Both the position numbers and the translations under genes were made by a program. The notes beneath the pieces are model-generated. The model did not search any database. It saw only the letters and a program-made list of their open reading frames with translations, and was not told the origin of the DNA. Positions 7,387-63,438 of a DNA stretch of 64,000 nt are shown in pieces. The first letter of the stretch is position 1. Every line of letters starts with the position of its first letter. Source of the DNA: Escherichia coli (GTDB lineage Bacteria; Pseudomonadota; Gammaproteobacteria; Enterobacterales; Enterobacteriaceae); assembly GCF_003790525.1 (NCBI RefSeq), contig NZ_CP033633.1, one strand, 5' to 3'.

Positions 7387-7709
7387 TTTTTCCAGAGGCG
7401 GTCGAACTCCGCCTTCGCAAAATAAGCGGAAGCCTGGCGAAGGATATCGTTACTGCGGCGCAGTTCACGATTTTCACGTTCCAGCTCTTTCAGACGCTGA
7501 CGTTCAGCGGTGGTGAGCCCGCCATCACCGCCTCCGGTATCCCGCTCATGCTGGCGTACCCAGACACGCAGAGTCTCCGGTGTACAGCCAATCTTTGGGG
7601 CAATGGAACAAATTGCCGCCCACTGTGAGTCATATTCGCCCTGACTTTCCAGAACCATACGAATCGCCCTCTGACGGACTTCGGGGGAAAAACGAGTATT
7701 TTTAGTCAT
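7383..7709 (-). CDS. IS629 transposase OrfA
   Basis: 108-aa [33 protein letters not shown]... with leucine-zipper tail. Confidence 0.85.
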
Positions 7710-8003
7710 TCTGTTTACCTCTTTATCAGGGAGTTTAGTCTCCAGGATTCCCGGGGCGGTTCAGTTTTCACTCAGCTATGAACAACTGACCCGGTTTGCG
7801 GAACGACGCATCCGGGAATGCAATCTGGACAGCCAGGGCGCGATTTATCTCTGCGAGTCAGCCAAAGCCGGAGCCGTGCTGATCTTCTGGCATGAACTGG
7901 CCATAAATGGCTATACCTCAATGAATGCCATAAAAAGACAGGAGATCATTGACGCCGACCATCAGCGCCTCAGAAAGCTTATCTGGCCGGAGGATGACTG
8001 GAA

Positions 8004-9114: not shown

Positions 9115-10473
9115 ATGAAAAGAAAAATTATTCCTGTGCTAATCGGTTGTACGCTCTCTTTCTCTGCCCTGGCGGCACAACCTACGGCTGAGCGCTATGT
9201 CGTCAGTTTTCCAGAAGGCACGCACGTGAACTACGCCGGCGCATTTGCTAGTGCATTCCCGAACGGCCTTCCGGTTGGGATAGGTTCTGGCCTGCTGTTC
9301 ACCGGTAAACAGGGCGATGCCCTGACATTCGCAACCATTACCGATCGCGGTCCGAACGCGGATTCACCGAAAGAGGGGAAAAACGAAACTAAAATTTTCG
9401 TTACGCCAGATTTCGCGCCGCTGCTGATGACGATTCGTGTACAAAACGGCAAAGCGGAGGCCATCGATCCCCGTCCTCTGCATGACGATAAAGGCGCGAT
9501 CAACGGTCTGCCGCTGGCAAGTGACGTGATTGGATCCACCAATGAAGTGGCCTTCAGCGACACGTTACATAGACTGAAGGGGGATAATCGCGGGCTGGAT
9601 ACGGAAGGGATCACTCCGGATGGTAAAGGAGGTTACTGGCTGTGCGATGAGTATGGCCCGTTCCTGATTAACATCGACAGTAAAGGGAAAATCCTGGCAA
9701 TCCACGGTCCGCAGGCGGCGGAAGGGGAAAAAGTGATTGCGGGCGGTTTGCCAAATATCCTCAAATGGCGTCAGGCGAACCGCGGCTTTGAAGGCCTCAC
9801 CCGTATGCCGGACGGGCGTATTATTGCCGCCGTGCAAAGTACGCTGGATATCGACGCTAAGAGCAAGGAAAAGGCGCTGTTTACGCGTCTGGTGAGCTTC
9901 GATCCGGCAAGCGGAAAAACCGCGATGTACGGTTATCCTATCGACAGCGCGGCCTACAGCAAAAACAGCGACGCTAAAATCGGAGACATCGTGGCGCTCG
10001 ATAACCAGCGCATCCTGCTGATCGAACAGGGAAGAGATAAAAACAACAGAATGCGTAACCTGATTTACGAGGTCGATCTCAATAAGGCGAGCGACCTGTC
10101 AGGCTTCGACAAGCCGGGTGAGTATCCGGAGTTTGATGATGAGAAAACCCTGTCACAGCGAGGCATTACCCTTGCGCAGAAAACGCAGGTTGTTGATCTG
10201 CGCTCCTTGGGCTGGCAGCAGGAGAAGGCTGAAGGGTTGGCGCTGATCGACAGCAAAACGCTGGCGGTGGCGAACGATAACGACTTTGGCGTGAAGGTGG
10301 CGATGCAACATCCGGTTGAGGGCAAGACATTCAAGGATTATCGGGTGAACGCGGAAGGAAAGCTGACGCTTGACGACAAGCAGGTTGAAACGACCCTCAG
10401 AGTGAAGCCACTGGAGAAACCGGAGTCTGACAGTGAACTGTGGATTGTGACGCTGCCGGAAGCGTTGAAATAA
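9115..10473 (+). CDS. secreted protein, phytase-like esterase family (tentative)
   Basis: Signal peptide MKRKIIPVLIGCTLSFSALAA; 452 aa; family assignment from memory of conserved blocks only. Confidence 0.5.
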   Translation: MKRKIIPVLIGCTLSFSALAAQPTAERYVVSFPEGTHVNYAGAFASAFPNGLPVGIGSGLLFTGKQGDALTFATITDRGPNADSPKEGKNETKIFVTPDFAPLLMTIRVQNGKAEAIDPRPLHDDKGAINGLPLASDVIGSTNEVAFSDTLHRLKGDNRGLDTEGITPDGKGGYWLCDEYGPFLINIDSKGKILAIHGPQAAEGEKVIAGGLPNILKWRQANRGFEGLTRMPDGRIIAAVQSTLDIDAKSKEKALFTRLVSFDPASGKTAMYGYPIDSAAYSKNSDAKIGDIVALDNQRILLIEQGRDKNNRMRNLIYEVDLNKASDLSGFDKPGEYPEFDDEKTLSQRGITLAQKTQVVDLRSLGWQQEKAEGLALIDSKTLAVANDNDFGVKVAMQHPVEGKTFKDYRVNAEGKLTLDDKQVETTLRVKPLEKPESDSELWIVTLPEALK

Positions 10474-38052: not shown

Positions 38053-38489
38053 CAGCGTAACTCCCGCGTCCTGTGTATCACGTGAGTGACAACACCAAAA
38101 ATACAGATGTTTTCCGGATACAGTGTGCGGAACTCCGGGCTGTCTGAAACCGGCTCCAGTGCCGGGCGTGGGCGCAACAGCAGTCGTTTGACGGTGAACT
38201 CACCGTCGATCTCAGCGATAACGATGTCCCCGTGTTGTGGTTTTTCGGCCCTGTCCACTACCAGCAGATCACCATTCTGCACGCCAGCCTGGTTCATCGA
38301 TTCACCGCTGGCGCGCAGAAAGAAGGTGGCTGCAGGTCTGCTGATGCAATAGCTGTTCAGATCCAGTTCCTGCTCAGCATAATCAGTGGCAGGCGAAGGA
38401 AAACCGGCCTGGCAACGATCGGCAAACAACGGTCGCACGTAACTGTCATCGCCTGAAGGGTCAGCCGGACGGTGATAAACGGTACTCAT
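38052..38489 (-). CDS. UmuD/MucA/ImpA-like self-cleaving accessory subunit
   Basis: 145 aa; ...ASGESMNQAGVQNGDLLVVDRA...GDIVIAEIDGEFTVKRL (Ser/Lys peptidase fold). Confidence 0.8.
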   Translation of the reverse strand: MSTVYHRPADPSGDDSYVRPLFADRCQAGFPSPATDYAEQELDLNSYCISRPAATFFLRASGESMNQAGVQNGDLLVVDRAEKPQHGDIVIAEIDGEFTVKRLLLRPRPALEPVSDSPEFRTLYPENICIFGVVTHVIHRTRELR

Positions 38490-38734
38490 GCTGCAGGCAG
38501 CCAGCTGTCGTCCTGCCAGATTTCTTCCAGCAGAGACAGGATACGTTCTTTATCCTTGTCGTTGCGGGCTCCTGTGACAGATACAGACGGGGCGCTGCCC
38601 TGGTCTATACGCAGCCAGATTTCCGGGTAGTGTGGTTTCAGACGTTGTTCGATTTCATTCTGTAGCGCCTGAAGTGTGCCTGATTTGAGGTTTTTTGTGC
38701 TCTGGCGGTCGAAAAGAATTTCAATGCGGATCAT
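38486..38734 (-). CDS. DinI-family protein (ImpC-like) heading the umuDC-like operon
   Basis: 82-aa ORF from internal ATG (MIRIEILFDRQ...ILSLLEEIWQDDSWLPAA), DinI-like acidic C-terminus. Confidence 0.6.
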   Translation of the reverse strand: MIRIEILFDRQSTKNLKSGTLQALQNEIEQRLKPHYPEIWLRIDQGSAPSVSVTGARNDKDKERILSLLEEIWQDDSWLPAA

Positions 38735-39127
38735 GTTCTCATCTCCCTTTTCTCTTGCTGTATGTATATACAGTATTCTAATAACTGAATCCACACACAG
38801 TCAAATGTCATTATTGTGACTAAAAAACGCTCAATTCTCTGAGGGTGTGGCTGTATGCCTGCTGTGGAGTGCTGTGTCCAGCTTATCCACAGCATTTTGT
38901 GCACGGTTCTGTGGACAAAATACCTGGTTACCCAGGCCGTGCCGGCACGTTAACCGGGCTGCATCCGATGCAAGTATGTCGCTGTCGCCGGCCTCCTCAC
39001 CCGGTCACGTTTCGTCGTTCCTCCTCCACGCGCTGCGGCTTCGGGGCCGCACCTGCATTCGTATGCGGTCGCCCGGTAACAGGTGCGGCACGGCCTGATG
39101 GAGGCCGCATGTGAGAGGAGAATTCCC

Positions 39128-40054
39128 ATGCCAAACTGGTGCTCGAATCGTATGTATTTTTCTGGTGAACCGGCACAGATCGCTGAGATTAAACGACTGG
39201 CCAGTGGTGCAGTCACACCGCTTTATCGCCGCGCCACAAATGAAGGTATTCAGCTGTTTCTGGCCGGAAGTGCCGGACTTCTGCAGACCACTGAAGATGT
39301 GCGGTTTGAACCATGCCCCGGACTGACGGCTGCCGGACGTGGTGTTGTATCTCCGGAGAATATAGCGTTCACCCGCTGGCTGACACACCTGCAGAACGGT
39401 GTACTGCTGGATGAGCAAAACTGCCTGATGCTGCATGAACTCTGGCTGCAGAGCGGTACTGGACAGCGTCGCTGGGAAGGATTACCGGACGATGTCAGGG
39501 ATACCATCACCGCACTTTTCACCGCAAAAAGAGGTGACTGGTGTGGCTTCTGGAGTAACGAGGATGTATCGGTGTGGTGGAACCGTCTGTGTGACAATGT
39601 ACTGCCGGAAAAAACCATGCCGTTTGACCTGCTGACGGTTCTGCCGACCCGCCTTGATGTTGAAGTGAATGGCTTCAACGGTGGTGTTCTGAACGGTGTT
39701 CCTTCTGCATATCACTGGTATACAGAACGGTATGGTGTGAAGTGGCCTTGTGGGTATGACCTGAATATCAGCAGTCAGGGGGAAAACTTCATTCAGGTGG
39801 ATTTCGACACGCCGTGGTGTCAGCCGGAAAGCGACGTTATTGCAGCATTAAGCCGCCGTTTCAGCTGCACGCTGGAGCACTGGTATGCCGAACAGGGCTG
39901 TGATTTCTGTGGCTGGCAGTTGTATGAGCGCGGAGAGCTTGTTGATGTGCTGTGGGGGGAACTGGAATGGTCTTCCCCGACAGATGACGATGAGCTGCCG
40001 GAAGTCACCGGACCTGCGTGGATAGTCGACAATGTGGCGCATTATGGCGGATGA
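39128..40054 (+). CDS. hypothetical Cys/Trp-rich leading-region protein
   Basis: 308 aa from ATG 39128 (MPNWCSNRMYFSG...); SD ggagga upstream; first ORF of the co-oriented leading-region block. Confidence 0.55.
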   Translation: MPNWCSNRMYFSGEPAQIAEIKRLASGAVTPLYRRATNEGIQLFLAGSAGLLQTTEDVRFEPCPGLTAAGRGVVSPENIAFTRWLTHLQNGVLLDEQNCLMLHELWLQSGTGQRRWEGLPDDVRDTITALFTAKRGDWCGFWSNEDVSVWWNRLCDNVLPEKTMPFDLLTVLPTRLDVEVNGFNGGVLNGVPSAYHWYTERYGVKWPCGYDLNISSQGENFIQVDFDTPWCQPESDVIAALSRRFSCTLEHWYAEQGCDFCGWQLYERGELVDVLWGELEWSSPTDDDELPEVTGPAWIVDNVAHYGG

Positions 40055-40102
40055 AGTATGACGGAGACGGGCGGGAAACCGCCCGTTTCTTTTCCGACAA
40101 AG

Positions 40103-40447
40103 GATGTCGCCGGCGGCTCCGCTTTACCCGGCCATGCGGGGCATGGCCTTGTGGGTTTTCAACTCTGTAGCCTCAGCGTCGTGTGCGGGCTGTGCCGTGC
40201 CTCCATCGTAGCCGGGCTTCTGCGGGCGGGTTGCAAGGTAAGGTGAACCGCTGCGGTCACCCGGTCCCTCCTTCCCGTCTGCCGTGATTTTCCGGTCGTT
40301 CACCCGCTCAGATTTCGCGGTCTCACCCTCCAACTCCCGTCAGCCGTGTGCGTCAGGCTGCGGCTTCCCTTGCGCCCTTGCAACCCTGCAGGCCCGGCAA
40401 AGATGGAGGCACGGCACCGCCCGGTGTCGCGGAATATGTGAACAACG
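40103..40447 (+). repeat. structured non-coding repeat, family A copy 1 (ssi/Frpo-like candidate)
   Basis: ~345 bp GC-rich, near-identical to 47056-47402; directly upstream of the klcA-like gene. Confidence 0.6.
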
Positions 40448-40459
40448 GAGGAAAACATC

Positions 40460-40885
40460 ATGCAATATGCGAAACCTGTCACTCTGAATGTTGAAGAGTG
40501 CGACCGTCTCTCCTTTCTGCCTTACCTGTTTGGCAACGATTTTCTGTATGCCGAGGCGTATGTGTACGCGCTGGCGCAAAAAATGATGCCGGAATATCAG
40601 GGAGGCTTCTGGCACTTCATCCGCCTGCCGGACGGTGGCGGTTACATGATGCCGGATGGCGACCGTTTCCACATGGTGAACGGTGCAAACTGGTTTGACC
40701 GTACCGTGAGTGCTGATGCCTGCGGCATCATTCTGACTTCCCTTGTGATTAACCGCCAGTTGTGGCTGTACCACGACAGCGGGGATGCGGGACTGACACA
40801 CCTTTACCGGATGCGCGATGCGCAGTTGTGGAGCCACATCGAATTTCACCCCGAATGCAATGCGATTTACGCGGCACTGGACTGA
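40460..40885 (+). CDS. antirestriction protein, KlcA/ArdB-like (tentative)
   Basis: 141 aa; ...[22 protein letters not shown]...[15 protein letters not shown]...; assignment from remembered family pattern. Confidence 0.5.
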
Positions 40886-40931
40886 TTAACGGACGGGGCG
40901 GCGATGCCGCCCCTGTAAAGGAGACGAGAAC

Positions 40932-41351
40932 ATGTACTGTACTGTTAAAGAAATTATCCGCGAAGTGCTGGATACAGACGTGCCGGACAGTGAATGCGTT
41001 TTTGCTGTGGTGCTGACCCGTGGGGATGTACGTCACATAGCCCAGGACTGGAGTCTGACAGACGATGAGCTGGAAACCGTCATGCAGCGGCTGGACGATG
41101 CCTTTGAGCATGGTGCTGATGTCAGCATTGTTCACGACGTTGTTCGTGAACTGATGGAGGAAAAGCGCGTAAACCGTCTTGTAACAGTCCCTGCGGTGCT
41201 GCTGGAAAAAGTGATGGTGATGGCTGGTAGTGAAATTTATCGCCTCCATGCTGTAGGGAGCGAGAACGGGGGCGACGGTGACGCATTTGTCAGGGAAGAA
41301 CGTGAGATTATGCGGTTGATGCGTCAGGCGCTGGACGGGGAGAACGGGTAA
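40932..41351 (+). CDS. hypothetical acidic leading-region protein
   Basis: 139-aa ORF co-oriented with neighbours. Confidence 0.5.
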   Translation: MYCTVKEIIREVLDTDVPDSECVFAVVLTRGDVRHIAQDWSLTDDELETVMQRLDDAFEHGADVSIVHDVVRELMEEKRVNRLVTVPAVLLEKVMVMAGSEIYRLHAVGSENGGDGDAFVREEREIMRLMRQALDGENG

Positions 41352-41542
41352 TGAATATCAGCACAGAAACCCGCGAAATTCTGCGCAATTACAAAGCCGT
41401 GATTAATGCACGACGTCGTGAGATGGGGCAGAAACCGCTCACCACCGCGCAGATTGTTGATGAAATCTGCGATTTTGTGGCAAATCAGCAGGCTGTTTTC
41501 CTCGGCGGTCACTACATCCTTCAGGGCAGCAGAAACAGGTGA
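41351..41542 (+). CDS. hypothetical small protein
   Basis: 63-aa ORF, start overlaps previous stop. Confidence 0.35.
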   Translation: MNISTETREILRNYKAVINARRREMGQKPLTTAQIVDEICDFVANQQAVFLGGHYILQGSRNR

Positions 41543-41744
41543 TACAGGGCAGGCGGTGGAGGCCGCCTGTCAGCCCGCGCGAAAACCCCTGGCAGGCTGA
41601 CGCCTGCCGGAAACGCGGGGTGCAGCGCCTGCGGCGCTGCCGGCCCGGCTTTCCGGTCAGAAGGTAGTGTATGGCTGTATGCCAGGAACAGGTGTGATAT
41701 TCCGTGACGCTGTCACCGTTTCTGGCTGTTTTTTGTTGCGCCCA

Positions 41745-42300
41745 CTTCGGCTCCCGGCTGCCTGGCGGCATCCGGTCGTCAGGCCCGACTCCGACAGGCA
41801 GCTGCTGGCGCACCCGCCAGTCTCCGCCGAACCCGCTGGCGCGGTTTCGGGCTGTCGCTACGGTCCGATGCGTGAAAACCCGGGCTTGCAGCGACCGTTC
41901 CGGTCGCGCCGCCTCTGTCGCGCCGTGACCTGCGCTCCCTGCACACCTGACGGTGTGTGAGGAAACTGCGCCTGATGGCGCAGCAGTCTTCCCTCCTGCC
42001 GCCACCTCTGCGGCCTGTTTCCCGCTGTGGACTTTCCGGGGGGCAGACGTAACCCCCTCCCGTTCCATCTGTCCAGGGTGAGATGCACCGGCCACAAAAT
42101 TTTTAGCCATGAACCCGGCTAAAAATTTTGCGTCCGCCCCCGGACAGCTGTCCCGTGAGGCGGTAAACGGGCCCCCATCGGAAAGGTCCACTGCGGGGAG
42201 AAACCCCTGTGAAGTGGACGGCAGGAGGAGCTTTCGCTCCTCTGAAGGGGCACATGAACGTCCCGTCGCCGGTATCCGGTTTATCTCACATCTTTCAGTC
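41745..42300 (+). repeat. structured non-coding repeat, family B copy 1 (ssi/Frpo-like candidate) upstream of ssb
   Basis: ~555 bp GC-rich, many internal palindromes; paralogous to 48098-48640 and 51470-51850. Confidence 0.6.
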
Positions 42301-42311
42301 AGGAGGTTCTT

Positions 42312-42839
42312 ATGAGTGCACGTGGTATCAACAAGGTCATCCTCGTCGGGCGTCTGGGCAATGATCCGGAAGTCCGTTACATCCCCAACGGGGGCGCAGT
42401 GGCAAACCTGCAGGTGGCCACGTCAGAAAGCTGGCGCGACAAACAGACGGGGGAGATGCGGGAGCAGACGGAATGGCACCGCGTGGTGCTGTTCGGCAAG
42501 CTCGCGGAAGTGGCAGGTGAATATCTGCGCAAGGGCGCGCAGGTCTACATCGAGGGGCAACTCCGTACCCGTAGCTGGGAAGATAACGGTATCACCCGTT
42601 ACGTCACTGAAATTCTTGTTAAGACCACGGGCACCATGCAGATGCTGGGGAGTGCACCACAGCAGAACGCTCAGGCGCAACCGAAGCCTCAGCAGAATGG
42701 GCAGCCACAGAGTGCTGACGCGACGAAAAAAGGTGGCGCGAAAACGAAAGGCCGTGGACGTAAGGCCGCGCAGCCCGAGTCTCAGCCGCAACCGCCGGAG
42801 GGGGAGGATTACGGGTTTTCAGACGATATCCCGTTCTGA
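42312..42839 (+). CDS. ssb: plasmid single-stranded DNA-binding protein
   Basis: 175 aa; OB-fold N-terminus, Gln/Pro-rich linker, acidic tail ...DDIPF. Confidence 0.9.
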
Positions 42840-43193: not shown

Positions 43194-45151
43194 ATGTCAG
43201 TTACAGAGTCTAAGACAAAAACGGAGCGTAAATCCAGCCGTAAACCTGCAAAAACGCAGGAAACTGCACTGTCTGCCCTGCTGGCGCAGACGGAGGAAGT
43301 GAGCGTGCCGCTGGATTCACTGATTAAATCACCGCTGAATGTGCGCACGGTGCCGTATTCTGCGGAGTCCGTCAGTGAACTGGCTGATTCCATTAAGGGA
43401 GTCGGCCTGCTGCAGAATCTGGTTGTTCATGCCCTGCCAGGTGACCGTTACGGTGTCGCCGCAGGTGGTCGCCGACTGGCAGCACTCAACATGCTGGCAG
43501 AGCGTGACATCATTCAGGCTGACTGGCCTGTCCGCGTGAAAATTATTCCGCAGGAGCTGGCGACGGCTGCATCGATGACCGAGAACGGTCATCGTCGGGA
43601 TATGCACCCTGCCGAACAGATTGCCGGATTCCGCGCAATGGCGCAGGAAGGCAAAACACCTGCGCAAATCGGTGATTTGCTGGGCTATTCACCCCGCCAT
43701 GTCCAGCGAATGCTGAAACTGGCTGACCTTGCGCCTGTCATCCTCGATGCGCTGGCAGAAGACCGCATCACCACCGAACACTGTCAGGCGCTGGCGCTGG
43801 AGAACGACACCGCGCGTCAGGTGCAGGTGTTTGAAGCCGCCTGCCAGTCAGGATGGGGTGGAAAACCGGATGTGCGGGTTATCCGCAACCTGATTACGGA
43901 AAGTGAAGTGGCGGTGAAGGACAACACTAAATTTCGCTTTGTGGGGGCTGATGCTTTCTCGCCTGACGAACTGCGCACCGATTTGTTCAGCGATGACGGG
44001 GACGGTTATGTCGACCGCGTGGCGCTCGATGCCGCCCTGCTGGAAAAACTCCAGGTTGTTGCAGAGTCCCTTCGGGAAGCAGAAGGCTGGGAATGGTGCG
44101 CCGGGCGCATGGAGCCAGTCGGTGAGTGCCGTGAGGATGCCGGAACATACCGCTGTCTGCCGGAGCCGGAAGCGGTGCTGACGGAGGCGGAAGAAGAACG
44201 CCTGAACGAACTGATGACGCGTTACGACGCGCTGGAAAACCAGTGTGAGGAATCCGACCTGCTGGAAGCAGAAATGAAGCTGATGCGCTGCATGGCGAAG
44301 GTCAGAGCGTGGACGCCGGAGATACGTGCCGGAAGCGGTGTGGTGGTGTCCTGGCGTTATGGCAACGTATGTGTCCAGCGTGGTGTGCAGTTGCGCAGTG
44401 AAGATGACGCGACTGACGACGCTGACCGCACGGAACAGGTGCAGGAGAAAGCGTCAGTGGAGGAAATCAGTCTGCCACTGCTGACGAAAATGTCTTCCGA
44501 ACGCACGCTGGCAGTCCAGGCGGCACTGATGCAGCAACCGGACAAATCCCTGACACTGCTGGCATGGACGCTCTGCCTGAATGTGTTTGGCAGCGGAGCG
44601 TACAGTAAACCAGCACAAATCAGCCTGGAATGTAAACATTATTCGCTGACCAGCGATGCGCCGTCAGGGAAGGAAGGTGCCGCATTCATGGCGCTGATGG
44701 CAGAAAAAGCCCGTCTTGCGGCCCTGTACCGGAGGGATGGTCACGGGACATGACGACATTCCTTTCACTCAGTCAGGAGGTGCTGTTATCCCTGCTCAGT
44801 TTCTGCACCGCGTGCAGCATCCACGGCGTTCAGACCCGCGAGTGTGGTCACACGTCACGCAGCCCGCTGGACACGCTGGAGAGCGCCATCGGTTTTCACA
44901 TGCGCGACTGGTGGCAGCCGACAAAAGCAAACTTCTTCGGACACCTGAAAAAGCCGCAGATTATCGCAGCCCTGAATGAGGCAGGACTGTCCGGTGCCGC
45001 ACGGGACGCGGAGAAGATGAAGAAAGGCGATGCGGCTGAACATGCAGAGTTCCATATGAAAGACAACCGCTGGGTGCCTGGCTGGATGTGTGCACCACGT
45101 CCACAGACGGATACCACTGAACGCACTGATAACCTGGCTGATGCCGCCTGA
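43194..45151 (+). pseudogene. ParB-like nuclease-domain protein (leading-region ParB/YubM-like) split by a frameshift near 44750
   Basis: ORFs 43194-44753 (519 aa, ParB/Srx-like motif ...VAAGGRRLAAL...) and 44750-45151 (133 aa) together span the ~650 aa expected. Confidence 0.65.
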
Positions 45152-46949: not shown

Positions 46950-47055
46950 ACCAGTGGAGGTATGCTTGAGGGGCAGGGACATGCCGGTCATGATCGTTTC
47001 GTTCCAGGGGTGGTCTGGAGATCATGCGGTGTGCTCCCTGCTCTCGCCGGAATAA

Positions 47056-47402
47056 GGACGTCGCCGGCGGCTCCGCTTTTACCCGGCCATGCGGGGCATG
47101 GCCTTGTGGGTTTTCAGGTATGAAGCCATCGTGTCGTGTGCGGGCTGTGCCGTGCCTCCATCGTAGCCGGGCTTCTGCGGGCGGGATGCAAAGGTACGCT
47201 TCGCCGCTGCGGTCACCCGGTCCCTCCTTCCCGTCTGCCGTGATTTTCCGGTCGTTCACCCGCTCAGATTTCGCGGTCTCACCCTCCAACTCCCGTCAGC
47301 CGTGCGCGTCGGGCTGCGGCTTTCCTTGCGCCCTTGCATCCCTGCAGGCCCGGCAAGGATGGAGGCACGGCACCGCCCGGTGCCGCAGAACATGTGACTA
47401 TG
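47056..47402 (+). repeat. structured non-coding repeat, family A copy 2 (ssi/Frpo-like candidate) upstream of ardA
   Basis: Near-identical to 40103-40447. Confidence 0.6.
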
Positions 47403-47414
47403 GAGGATTCGGGA

Positions 47415-48097: not shown

Positions 48098-48640
48098 CTT
48101 CGGCTCCCGGCTGCCTGGCGGCATCCGGTCGTCAGGCCCGACTCCGACAGGCAGCTGCTGGCGCACCCGCCAGTCTCCGCCGAACCCGCTGGCGCGGTTT
48201 CGGGCTGCCGCTACGGTCCGATGTCTGAAAAACCAGGCCTGCAGCGACCGTTCCGGTCGCGCCGCCCCTGTCGCGCCGGAAACGGCGCTCCCTGCACACC
48301 TGACGGTGTGTAAGGCCACTGCGCCTGATGGCGCAGTTGTCTGCCCTTCCGCCGCCACCCCTGCGGCCTGTTTCCCGCTGTGGACTTTCCGGGGGCTGAA
48401 GCGGCCACAACACGTTTCAGCCGTCCAGGGGAGAGATGTACCAGCCACAAAACTTTTTGCCGCAGGCGTCAAAAACTTTTGCGTCTGCCCCCGGACAACT
48501 GCCCCGTGCCGTGGCAGTCGCTGCCCCATCGGAAAGGTCCACTGCGGGGAGAAACCCCGAAGAAGTGGACGGCAGAAGGGGCTTTCGCCCCTCCGGGGAA
48601 TAACCGGTCGGCCCGGCGACCTGATTCAGCAGAAGGAGAC
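48098..48640 (+). repeat. structured non-coding repeat, family B copy 2
   Basis: Paralogue of 41745-42300. Confidence 0.6.
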
Positions 48641-51469: not shown

Positions 51470-51850
51470 TTTTCTCCGGTCGCGCCGGATGCGGCGCTCC
51501 CTGCACACCTGACGGTGTGTAAGGCCACTGCGCCTGATGGCGCAGCTGTCTCTGCCTGTCTGCCGCCGCACTGCGGCCCGTTCTCCGCAGACGAACTTTC
51601 CGGGGGTACATACACGACCACATCCCGTTTCAGTCGTCCAGGGGAGAGATGTACCAGCCACAAAACTTTTTGCCGCAGGCGTCAAAAACTTTTGCGTCTG
51701 CCCCCGGACAACTGCCCCGTGACGTGGTGAGCGTCCCCCGTCGGAAAGGTCCACTGCGGGGAAATCCCCGAAGACCCGGACGGCAGAAGGAGCTTCGCTC
51801 CTCCGGGAAATGACCTGGCTGACCCGGCAGTCGTGACGATGAGGAGACAA
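51470..51850 (+). repeat. structured non-coding repeat, family B copy 3 (5'-truncated)
   Basis: Collinear with the 3' ~380 bp of 48098-48640. Confidence 0.55.
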
Positions 51851-56403: not shown

Positions 56404-56471
56404 AAATCATGTAGACAGGGTGATTAAATCACCGTAATGTGTCCTCGTTGTGTATACATTATGGGGGAGAT

Positions 56472-56720
56472 ATGCGAACACAGGTGACACTGCAAAAATG
56501 GGGCAACAGTATTGCTCTCCGGTTAACCGGAAATCTGAAAACCGTGCCGGGTTTTTCGGCAGGAGATGTGGTTGATGTGGAAATCAGTGAGAAAGGATTG
56601 ATCGTGGAAAAACCGGTGAGACCTCGTCTTACAGAGGCTGTATTGCTTGCGGGGCTGACGCCATTTTCCGCGCATGCAGATGAAGCTGCCACTCTTCTTG
56701 ATAAGGAGAGTGAGTTCTGA
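56472..56720 (+). CDS. MazE/PemI-like antitoxin (AbrB/SpoVT fold)
   Basis: 82 aa MRTQVTLQKWGNSIALRLTGNL...; stop overlaps toxin start. Confidence 0.65.
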   Translation: MRTQVTLQKWGNSIALRLTGNLKTVPGFSAGDVVDVEISEKGLIVEKPVRPRLTEAVLLAGLTPFSAHADEAATLLDKESEF

Positions 56721-57064
56721 TGTTTGTTCCAAAGCGTGGTGATATTTGCTGGCTTGATTTTGAACCCCAAAAAGGAAAAGAAATTGGCAAATATCGTCCG
56801 GCATTAATCCTGTCCCATGAGCAATATAATCGTTTAACAGGGCTTGTCATATGCTGCCCTGTCAGTACGAGTATCCGGGGCGCTCCAACAGAGGTTCCTG
56901 TTACTAATCTCGATGCACCAAGTGTGGTGGCCACAACGCTCATACAGACACTTGACTGGCGGCAAAGGCAAGTGCGTTTAATTACGGAAGCAGAAGAGGG
57001 CGTATTTGATGAGGTGCTTGAGAGAGTGATCACTCTGATTGGTGGTGAACATTTACTGAAGTGA
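56720..57064 (+). CDS. MazF/PemK-like endoribonuclease toxin
   Basis: 114 aa MFVPKRGDICWLDFEPQKGKEIGKYRPALILSHEQYN... Confidence 0.8.
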   Translation: MFVPKRGDICWLDFEPQKGKEIGKYRPALILSHEQYNRLTGLVICCPVSTSIRGAPTEVPVTNLDAPSVVATTLIQTLDWRQRQVRLITEAEEGVFDEVLERVITLIGGEHLLK

Positions 57065-58095: not shown

Positions 58096-60835
<2,740 letters not shown>

Positions 60836-61366
60836 TGAGTTAACAGACAAAACATTCTCCAGGAAACCCGGGGCGGTTCATATCGCCAGAAAAGCTTTCA
60901 CAACGCCTGTGAGCATATCCAGAACAAAAACGAAAAAATCCTTGTTCGTTCTTAAAAATCGCGTTAGAACTCCTTTGAGCGTGTTCTGCGACTGTGTCTT
61001 GTGTTGGCATGCGTAAACGGGAGCCGCAGTTCGCGCTCACCCTCCCATCTGTATTTCACCTGACGACACGGTTCTTCGTTACGTTCCTTCGGTGAGTGAG
61101 TGCCTGTGCGTCAGGGTAACGCAAAGTGTTCAGGTTTTGCGGGGTGTCAAGTCGGTTAGACTAACCGACCGCAGAATTAACTATACCTCTGAAGGTCTCC
61201 CCCGATATATCTGCCTGTCAGATATGTCGCCGATTCGGCATATCACTACATTAAACTCCTTAAAAAACAATGATGCTATGTTGACTGACGGTTTTTCGGA
61301 AGTCTGACCGGAGAGACGTCAGTACGAAACAGAATGAAGTTGAAAAAACGATCACGTCAGGTCACT

Positions 61367-63438
<2,072 letters not shown>

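Follow-up and report, generated by a model that had tools for sequence, protein, structure and literature searches.

Introduction

The genes ardA, psiB and ssb are classical leading-region genes of IncI1 plasmids, and the origin of transfer (oriT) of these plasmids adjoins nikA. Here we analyse a block of four open reading frames (ORFs) that stands ahead of ssb in a 64,000-nt stretch of Escherichia coli DNA (RefSeq assembly GCF_003790525.1, contig NZ_CP033633.1). The whole of this stretch is called the window, and positions refer to it unless another sequence is named. The block is made of a gene of the DUF1281/Api92 family, an ArdB/KlcA anti-restriction gene, a divergent DUF1380-family gene and a 63-codon gene that we call orf63. 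Our main concern is the way these genes may be read from the transferred strand (T-strand) of the plasmid and, in particular, a hairpin that lies just before the DUF1281 gene.

The closest described systems are the leading regions of plasmids pESBL, R64 and F. Class 1 and class 2 single-strand DNA promoters were defined in pESBL through RNA sequencing (RNA-seq) and 5' rapid amplification of cDNA ends (5' RACE), and 5' RACE mapped those of class 2 (PMC12672017), which lie before klcA and ardA (Wen et al., NAR 2025). In F, the element named ssp2 drives an ArdB homologue and delays complementary-strand synthesis, while its deletion brings transfer into EcoKI recipients down 5-fold (bioRxiv 2026.01.09.698686). 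The ArdB protein of R64 blocks type IA, IB and IC restriction in vivo (PMC10149784). All four families of the block appear in the Supplementary Table of Samuel & Burstein (Nature 2024) among the largest that are enriched in leading regions on the strand allowing transcription from the T-strand: family 27 (DUF1281; YubB/YccB/YfdA/YfaB), family 9 (KlcA), family 14 (YcjA/YfeC/YubJ) and, matched by name, family 6 (AreA/YffA). The block is therefore composed of ordinary, already catalogued leading-region genes. Three of its families are without an assigned function, and our search of the literature found no functional study of DUF1281, DUF1380, Api92, YubB, yfdA or the AreA/63-aa protein. The initial annotation, established from the letters alone, was right about KlcA; the ORFs that it called unknown belong to these catalogued families, whose function is unassigned.

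The block is the oriT-distal end of a leading region

Between 38.4 and 42.4 kb the window is 100% identical over 4 kb (99.96% over 14 kb) to pE16-3, a plasmid of a chicken E. coli isolate typed as IncK2/Z, MOBP and MPF_I. Sequence closely related to this region is found on more than 5,000 PLSDB plasmids. The four ORFs are identical to genes of public IncK2/Z E. coli plasmids, and public databases contain all four exact protein sequences, each in a cluster of 1,000 to 6,400 members. They are co-oriented on the + strand, exactly where the initial annotation had placed them (Table 1), before ssb (42312-42839). Shine-Dalgarno-like sequences precede the first three, 46 nt separate klcA from the DUF1380-like gene, and the latter is coupled to orf63 by a TAATG stop/start overlap.

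The genes dinI/impC, impA and impB lie 5' of the block, on the opposite strand. On its 3' side come ssb, DUF905, a ParB-like gene, psiB, psiA, ardA, more small genes, nikA and nikB. The last two, at about 53.2-56.4 kb, locate oriT, and the order of genes moving away from it is ardA, psiA/psiB, ssb, klcA and DUF1281. Since ardA, psiB and ssb belong to the leading region and oriT adjoins nikA, the - strand of the window is the strand that is transferred. The block, about 12-14 kb from oriT, is therefore the oriT-distal end of the leading region, its last part to enter the recipient. It had been described as the start of the leading block: this is correct for the direction of transcription and wrong for the order of transfer.

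We consider it likely that the window derives from an IncK2/Z (I-complex) conjugative plasmid whose oriT-distal leading region is formed by these four ORFs, arranged in two units that are read from the transferred - strand. The first unit would be the DUF1281 gene alone. The second would comprise klcA, the DUF1380-like gene and orf63, behind a class 2 single-strand DNA promoter.

Table 1. Position of the genes, hairpins and deletion scar of the block (window coordinates)
Feature	Position	Strand	Remarks
Imperfect hairpin before DUF1281, class-2-like, 165 nt	38933..39097	-	arms 38933-38959 and 39071-39097
DUF1281/Api92-family protein, 308 aa	39128..40054	+	isoelectric point (pI) 4.5 (acidic), Trp/Cys-rich
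Deletion scar	40050..40170	+	retains 39 codons of the small ORF located after DUF1281 in pESBL and R64
Class 2 single-strand DNA promoter hairpin before klcA	40100..40459	-	arms 40186-40217 and 40392-40423
ArdB/KlcA anti-restriction protein, 141 aa	40460..40885	+	PF03230, E 1e-25
Divergent DUF1380-family protein, 139 aa	40932..41351	+	pI 4.5 (acidic), predicted all-helical
orf63, 63-aa protein (AreA/YffA/Hp13/'plasmid protein')	41351..41542	+	pI 9.6 (basic), translationally coupled to the DUF1380-like gene
Class 1 (ssi/Frpo-type) single-strand DNA promoter hairpin before ssb	41580..42242	-	downstream boundary of the block

The klcA operon and its catalogued hairpin

The element upstream of klcA folds as a hairpin with 32-nt arms, 91% complementary and 174 nt apart (-106 kcal/mol, z -5.7). 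It is 88% identical to pESBL L005 7012-7370 and 92% identical to the copy found upstream of ardA in the window (47054-47407). Both in sequence and as a stem-loop, with the same arms, it is directly orthologous to the promoter of klcA in pESBL and to ssp2 of F. The class 1 element that bounds the block before ssb is likewise 99% identical to its pESBL counterpart, and the 769-nt intergenic region in which it lies is still more strongly structured (-219 kcal/mol, z -9.9). A repeat within it, 41745-42242, recurs at 48098-48593 (87%) and 51479-51803 (79%); these two copies are nearer oriT, and the resulting number of class 1 elements, three, is also that of pESBL. All these repeated intergenic elements, of class 1 and class 2 alike, fold as long hairpins on the - strand. 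Rfam held nothing relevant for the block. Since the intergenic hairpins are orthologous to elements studied experimentally in pESBL and F, klcA, the DUF1380-like gene and orf63 are best read as a zygotically induced operon.

Upon entry of the T-strand, a hairpin of roughly 240 nt would rebuild a sigma-70 promoter whose -10 region is unpaired, and host RNA polymerase would transcribe the operon until synthesis of the complementary strand abolishes the hairpin. The ArdB/KlcA protein made in this burst would shield the plasmid, which is not yet modified, from type I restriction enzymes, probably by interfering with the enzyme on DNA and not by DNA mimicry. The DUF1380-like protein and orf63 would be its conserved co-transcribed partners. 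Early expression would be expected in the present plasmid, and DUF1281, the DUF1380-like protein and orf63 may be involved in establishment or in countering host defence.

The family of the klcA product, which the initial annotation had proposed, is confirmed by profile search: the PF03230 match extends over residues 45-141, that is, over positions 2-92 of a model of 92. The protein also matches PHROG 10132 'anti-restriction protein' (E 2e-19), KlcA of IncP plasmids (PDB 2KMG; E 4.6e-18, residues 5-141) and ArdB of strain CFT073 (2WJ9; E 8e-8, residues 11-141). With these two and with R64 ArdB it has PF03230, length and full-length alignment in common. It is identical to the R64 protein (YfeB) at 132 of 141 residues and to pESBL KlcA/ArdB at 138 of 141; apart from the nine substitutions, nothing material distinguishes it from the former. 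In pESBL and F the gene also resides in the leading region, behind a class 2 hairpin. We have here a near-copy of a tested anti-restriction protein, and the variant is predicted to be active.

The two genes that follow are less conspicuous. The 139-aa protein (YfeC, YcjA, YubJ or Hp12 elsewhere) matches PF07128 (DUF1380) weakly (E 4.9e-4, 20.6 bits, 105 of 137 model positions), yet BLASTP aligns it with the DUF1380 paralogue encoded in the methylase operon of pESBL (28% identity, E 3e-10). It shares with DUF1380 proteins (YcgB/YubF) full-length alignment, an MYGT/MYCT start, a VTVPA motif and a helical prediction, while it differs from them in belonging to a separate cluster, that of YcjA/YfeC/YubJ (family 14). 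Its structural model is helical and confident; the structural neighbours of the model are uninformative. The orf63 protein is identical to that of pESBL at 63 of 63 residues and to that of R64 at 62 of 63. Its relatives are solely close ones (at least 82% identity), carried by enterobacterial plasmids only, and none has a Pfam domain. Both small proteins had been announced as acidic, which is true of the first, whereas the second is basic (Table 1).

Might these two be chance ORFs, in DNA that is GC-rich? The weak Pfam support (E 4.9e-4 and 0.029) would fit this view, as would the spurious ORFs annotated elsewhere in this GC-rich region, over hairpins for example. It is nevertheless hardly credible. 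The 139-aa ORF has its confident helical model and can be aligned over its entire length with DUF1380 proteins that are as little as about 21-35% identical, relatives that match PF07128 included; the exact orf63 sequence occurs on more than 1000 contigs, and the two genes are translationally coupled. Compared with R64, synonymous and non-synonymous codon differences amount to 6 and 1 in orf63, 17 and 22 in the 139-aa gene, 11 and 9 in klcA, and 21 and 22 in DUF1281. The four ORFs are real genes under purifying selection, and the 6:1 ratio of orf63 makes this clear for that gene.

A class-2-like hairpin ahead of the DUF1281 gene

The only unreported item of the block is the promoter-like hairpin of class 2 type that lies upstream of DUF1281. 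The hairpin has 27-nt arms with 78% complementarity, separated by 111 nt. Its core has a folding energy of -48.3 kcal/mol (z -3.2), and the z-score of the whole intergenic region is -3.8. The non-template arm carries TTGCAT-N15-TAACGT inside GCCCGG...GGCACGG, with the layout of the klcA and ardA hairpins, and the A-A/C of the -10-like hexamer is unpaired. Class 2 elements thus have in common with it the GCCCGG(C/T)-TAxxxT-...GGCACGG arms, the unpaired -10 bubble, the TTG motif and a distance of 31-37 nt from arm to ATG. They differ in having longer arms (32 nt), wider spacing (174 nt) and higher stability. Overall sequence similarity is weak, direct alignment of the region with the class 2 elements giving z-scores of 2.1 and 5.5, and its role as a promoter is that of a candidate. 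The kinship becomes apparent once the hairpin arms of divergent plasmids are compared.

Together with the gene, the 228-nt region 5' of DUF1281 is present on more than 4,400 PLSDB plasmids. Nearly all of these 4,401 records are at least 95% identical, hence of no use for covariation, and divergent loci were therefore taken via protein homologues, from six plasmids in which DUF1281 is 49-62% identical and the order DUF1281-methylase-DUF1380-KlcA-DUF1380-like is kept. A related hairpin, at the same distance from the ATG, is found in four of the six (Pantoea, Salmonella, Klebsiella and Kosakonia; DUF1281 51-56%). Nine elements could be placed in register. In most or all of them, positions 9-11 of the alignment, which fall within the -10-like hexamer, do not pair, and 10 of the 28 stem pairs have changed on both sides. 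With arms picked by an inverted-repeat finder and aligned by hand, the covariation of the stem is 0.244, against a mean of 0.109 after shuffling (none of 500 as high) and 0.03-0.10 in slid controls. In the two other plasmids (K. pneumoniae IncFII and Salmonella) the place of the hairpin is taken by one of class 3 type, about 80-90% identical to the mapped M.EcoGIX promoter of pESBL, and ending at the same distance from the ATG of DUF1281. This replacement, at the same site, suggests that DUF1281 needs a promoter of the single-strand type. No sigma-70 promoter was detected 5' of the gene when the + strand was scanned with the consensus.

It is quite possible, and we propose it tentatively, that DUF1281 has its own class-2-type single-strand promoter, that the gene is zygotically induced, and that its product acts in establishment or against host defence. 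The pESBL set has six elements (three class 1, two class 2, one class 3); the hairpin described here is a seventh, unpublished, and it would be the seventh such promoter in leading regions of the IncI type.

Several observations weigh against this proposal. With a z-score of about -3 to -4, the hairpin is weaker than the elements of class 2 (-5.7), class 3 (-6.4) and class 1 (-9.9), and the spacer between its putative -35 and -10 hexamers, 15 nt, is short for sigma-70. RNA-seq of pESBL revealed six induced operons only, and some leading-region genes were not induced; the hairpin being outside this set, Hp8, the DUF1281 protein of pESBL, may lack zygotic induction. Transposon sequencing (TnSeq) of pESBL, which covered maintenance and transfer in laboratory E. 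coli matings, gave Hp8, KlcA/ArdB, Hp12 and Hp13 as 'non-essential', with probability 1.00 (Table 2 of that study). The DUF1281 gene is frameshifted in F and appears, therefore, to be dispensable without obvious harm. Finally, DUF1281, the DUF1380-like protein and orf63 had zero matches in PADLOC and no meaningful match in NCBIfam.

A different account of the same facts is conceivable, although we are somewhat doubtful of it. DUF1281 would be neither early nor transcribed from single-stranded DNA: it would be expressed from ordinary double-stranded DNA and have a role other than anti-defence, while the hairpin would be what is left of a decayed class 2 element, or would have a structural role only, for instance as a priming site or as a roadblock to replication at the edge of the leading region. 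The weaker fold, the limitation of induction in pESBL to six operons, with this hairpin outside their set, the TnSeq result and the F pseudogene are all in keeping with it, and F ssp2 does act as a structural roadblock independently of transcription (bioRxiv 2026.01.09.698686). What it accommodates poorly is the persistence of the T-A...T hexamer, of the unpaired A-A/C bubble and of the TTG 15 nt upstream at 51-56% DUF1281 identity, in a stem that covaries. The promoter-type class 3 hairpin at the same site in two plasmids is hard to explain without a need for a promoter, and the + strand scan offered no double-stranded substitute of sigma-70 type.

We also considered DUF1281 as the first gene of the M.EcoGIX operon, under the class 3 promoter, and rejected this because the class 3 hairpin is located 3' of DUF1281. 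On the K. pneumoniae IncFII contig (L010) the class 3-type hairpin is duplicated (~90%), with one copy before DUF1281 and one before the methylase gene (7690-8003 and 9608-9921).

The DUF1281/Api92 protein

The 308-aa protein, known as YfaB in R64, YfdA/YubB in F and Hp8 in pESBL, had been left unassigned, with no recognizable motif. It belongs to the DUF1281/Api92 family. Both Pfam domains are present, in order: DUF1281 (PF06924; E 4.8e-49, residues 30-206) and DUF1281_C (PF18406; E 6.7e-15, residues 209-282). The match to PHROG 37043 covers the full length. The protein also matches Api92, from a Yersinia pseudotuberculosis pathogenicity island, whose crystal structure has been solved (PDB 2IJR; E 3e-50), and it shares the three-dimensional fold of Api92. 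This fold is unique among solved structures. Members of the family are also named 'YubB ferredoxin-like domain' proteins, and relatives with this domain are found in phages and giant viruses. The two lineages differ in location: Api92 is encoded by a chromosomal island, whereas DUF1281 lies at the distal end of plasmid leading regions, where it is the first gene of the co-oriented array in every plasmid examined.

An N-terminal MPNWCxNR is shared without variation by 21 homologues, with identities as low as 46%, and marks membership of the family; Api92 has the variant EWCKNR. The RefSeq records of pE16-3 and pEF5-18-41_2 begin the protein at an internal Met (39152 instead of 39128; 300 aa), with loss of this motif, while other RefSeq records use the 308-aa start. 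Its invariance implies that the 308-aa start is correct and the 300-aa start wrong.

The richness in Trp and Cys that the initial annotation had noticed is real: the protein contains 16 Trp (5.2%) and 10 Cys (3.2%), with binomial P-values of 3e-5 and 4e-3 against an approximate background of estimated E. coli frequencies, and among the window's 47 ORFs of 150 aa or more it has the highest Trp fraction. The CxxxxxC spacing that had been reported with it does not occur. The cysteines are at positions 5, 63, 99, 139, 155, 208, 231, 247, 258 and 261, the sole close pair being the CxxC at 258-261. Its conserved cysteines (this pair, C5, C99 and C155) could make DUF1281 a metal-binding or redox protein, and some features are consistent with the idea: all 21 plasmid homologues have C5 and C261, and conservation reaches at least 90% for C99, C155 and C258, while the CxxC coincides with a predicted beta-turn. 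We deem it unlikely. The extra conserved cysteines, CxxC included, are proper to the plasmid subfamily, and a metal cluster as a trait of the family is rejected because Api92 is without most of them.

In the F reference (NC_002483, 6856-7790) the DUF1281 gene, yfdA, has lost one A from an A-run and meets a stop after 168 codons. F, the customary model plasmid, is thus without an intact copy, and the hairpin region 5' of yfdA is still 98% conserved.

Loss of the methylase operon

In pESBL, R64 (YfbB) and F (YfeA), as in most relatives, the M.EcoGIX operon and its class 3 promoter lie between DUF1281 and klcA. The window has the same flanks, and the whole operon is gone together with the class 3 hairpin. 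The stretch that separates DUF1281 from the class 2 hairpin is 2553 bp shorter than in pESBL; it has lost the class 3 hairpin, the M.EcoGIX single-strand methylase, YubE, DUF1380 and YchA. The same segment is absent by comparison with R64, F and another IncK2/Z plasmid. According to blastn, window 38400-40112 corresponds to pESBL L005 2742-4455 and window 40097-42400 to L005 7009-9310. The junction is at 40097-40112, in the short repeat AAAGGA(T/C)GTCGCCG (14-16 nt), this lineage having lost 2.5 kb between such short repeats. Of the 5,000 plasmids that match best, no more than 92 have the contiguous arrangement. As a consequence of the deletion, the plasmid of the window is without the single-strand-specific methylase.

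RefSeq 'hypothetical proteins' overlie the class 3 hairpin or the ssb-upstream region that holds the class 1 element (pESBL L005 4394-4705 and 8467-8838; R64 L007 1601-1912). They are probably spurious, in GC-rich structured DNA. The class 3 hairpin of pESBL, L005 4499-4722, sits inside a probably spurious 103-aa ORF, and the revised annotation of pESBL by its authors has no gene there.

Neighbouring genes

The divergent impC(dinI-like)-impA-impB operon shares its intergenic region with the DUF1281 hairpin. Within 38758-38804, on the - strand, lie its promoter, TTGACT-18-TAGAAT, and a perfect LexA box, TACTGTATATACATACAG, which overlaps the downstream end of this promoter by one base, so that the operon is SOS-regulated. 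Beyond ssb, the ParB-like gene (43194-45151) is a homologue of YfjB/HerB of F, lately reported as a host-reprogramming protein. It lacks one T (about 44726) with respect to pE16-3, where the intact protein has 652 aa, and is split into ORFs of 519 and 133 aa, by either a genuine frameshift or a sequencing error. On the 3' side of nikB (56439-57064 and 58752-63235) there are a MazE/MazF-type toxin-antitoxin pair, a group II intron reverse transcriptase (ltrA) and IS100 (istA/istB), as called from the annotation of a 99% identical plasmid.

Significance

The block is not new in itself, with identical proteins on thousands of sequenced plasmids and an established function for ArdB. Its value is to point to DUF1281, a very widespread protein with a fold that is unique among solved structures and no assigned function. 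The loss of the methylase operon, after which DUF1281 stands as a unit of one gene, and the frameshift in the F copy provide ready-made genetic contrasts. If its hairpin is an active single-strand promoter, DUF1281 would be among the few proteins made within minutes of plasmid entry, and hence a concrete target for assays of the alleviation of restriction, CRISPR and abortive infection. It would then be an establishment or anti-defence protein, with a fold unmatched among solved structures.

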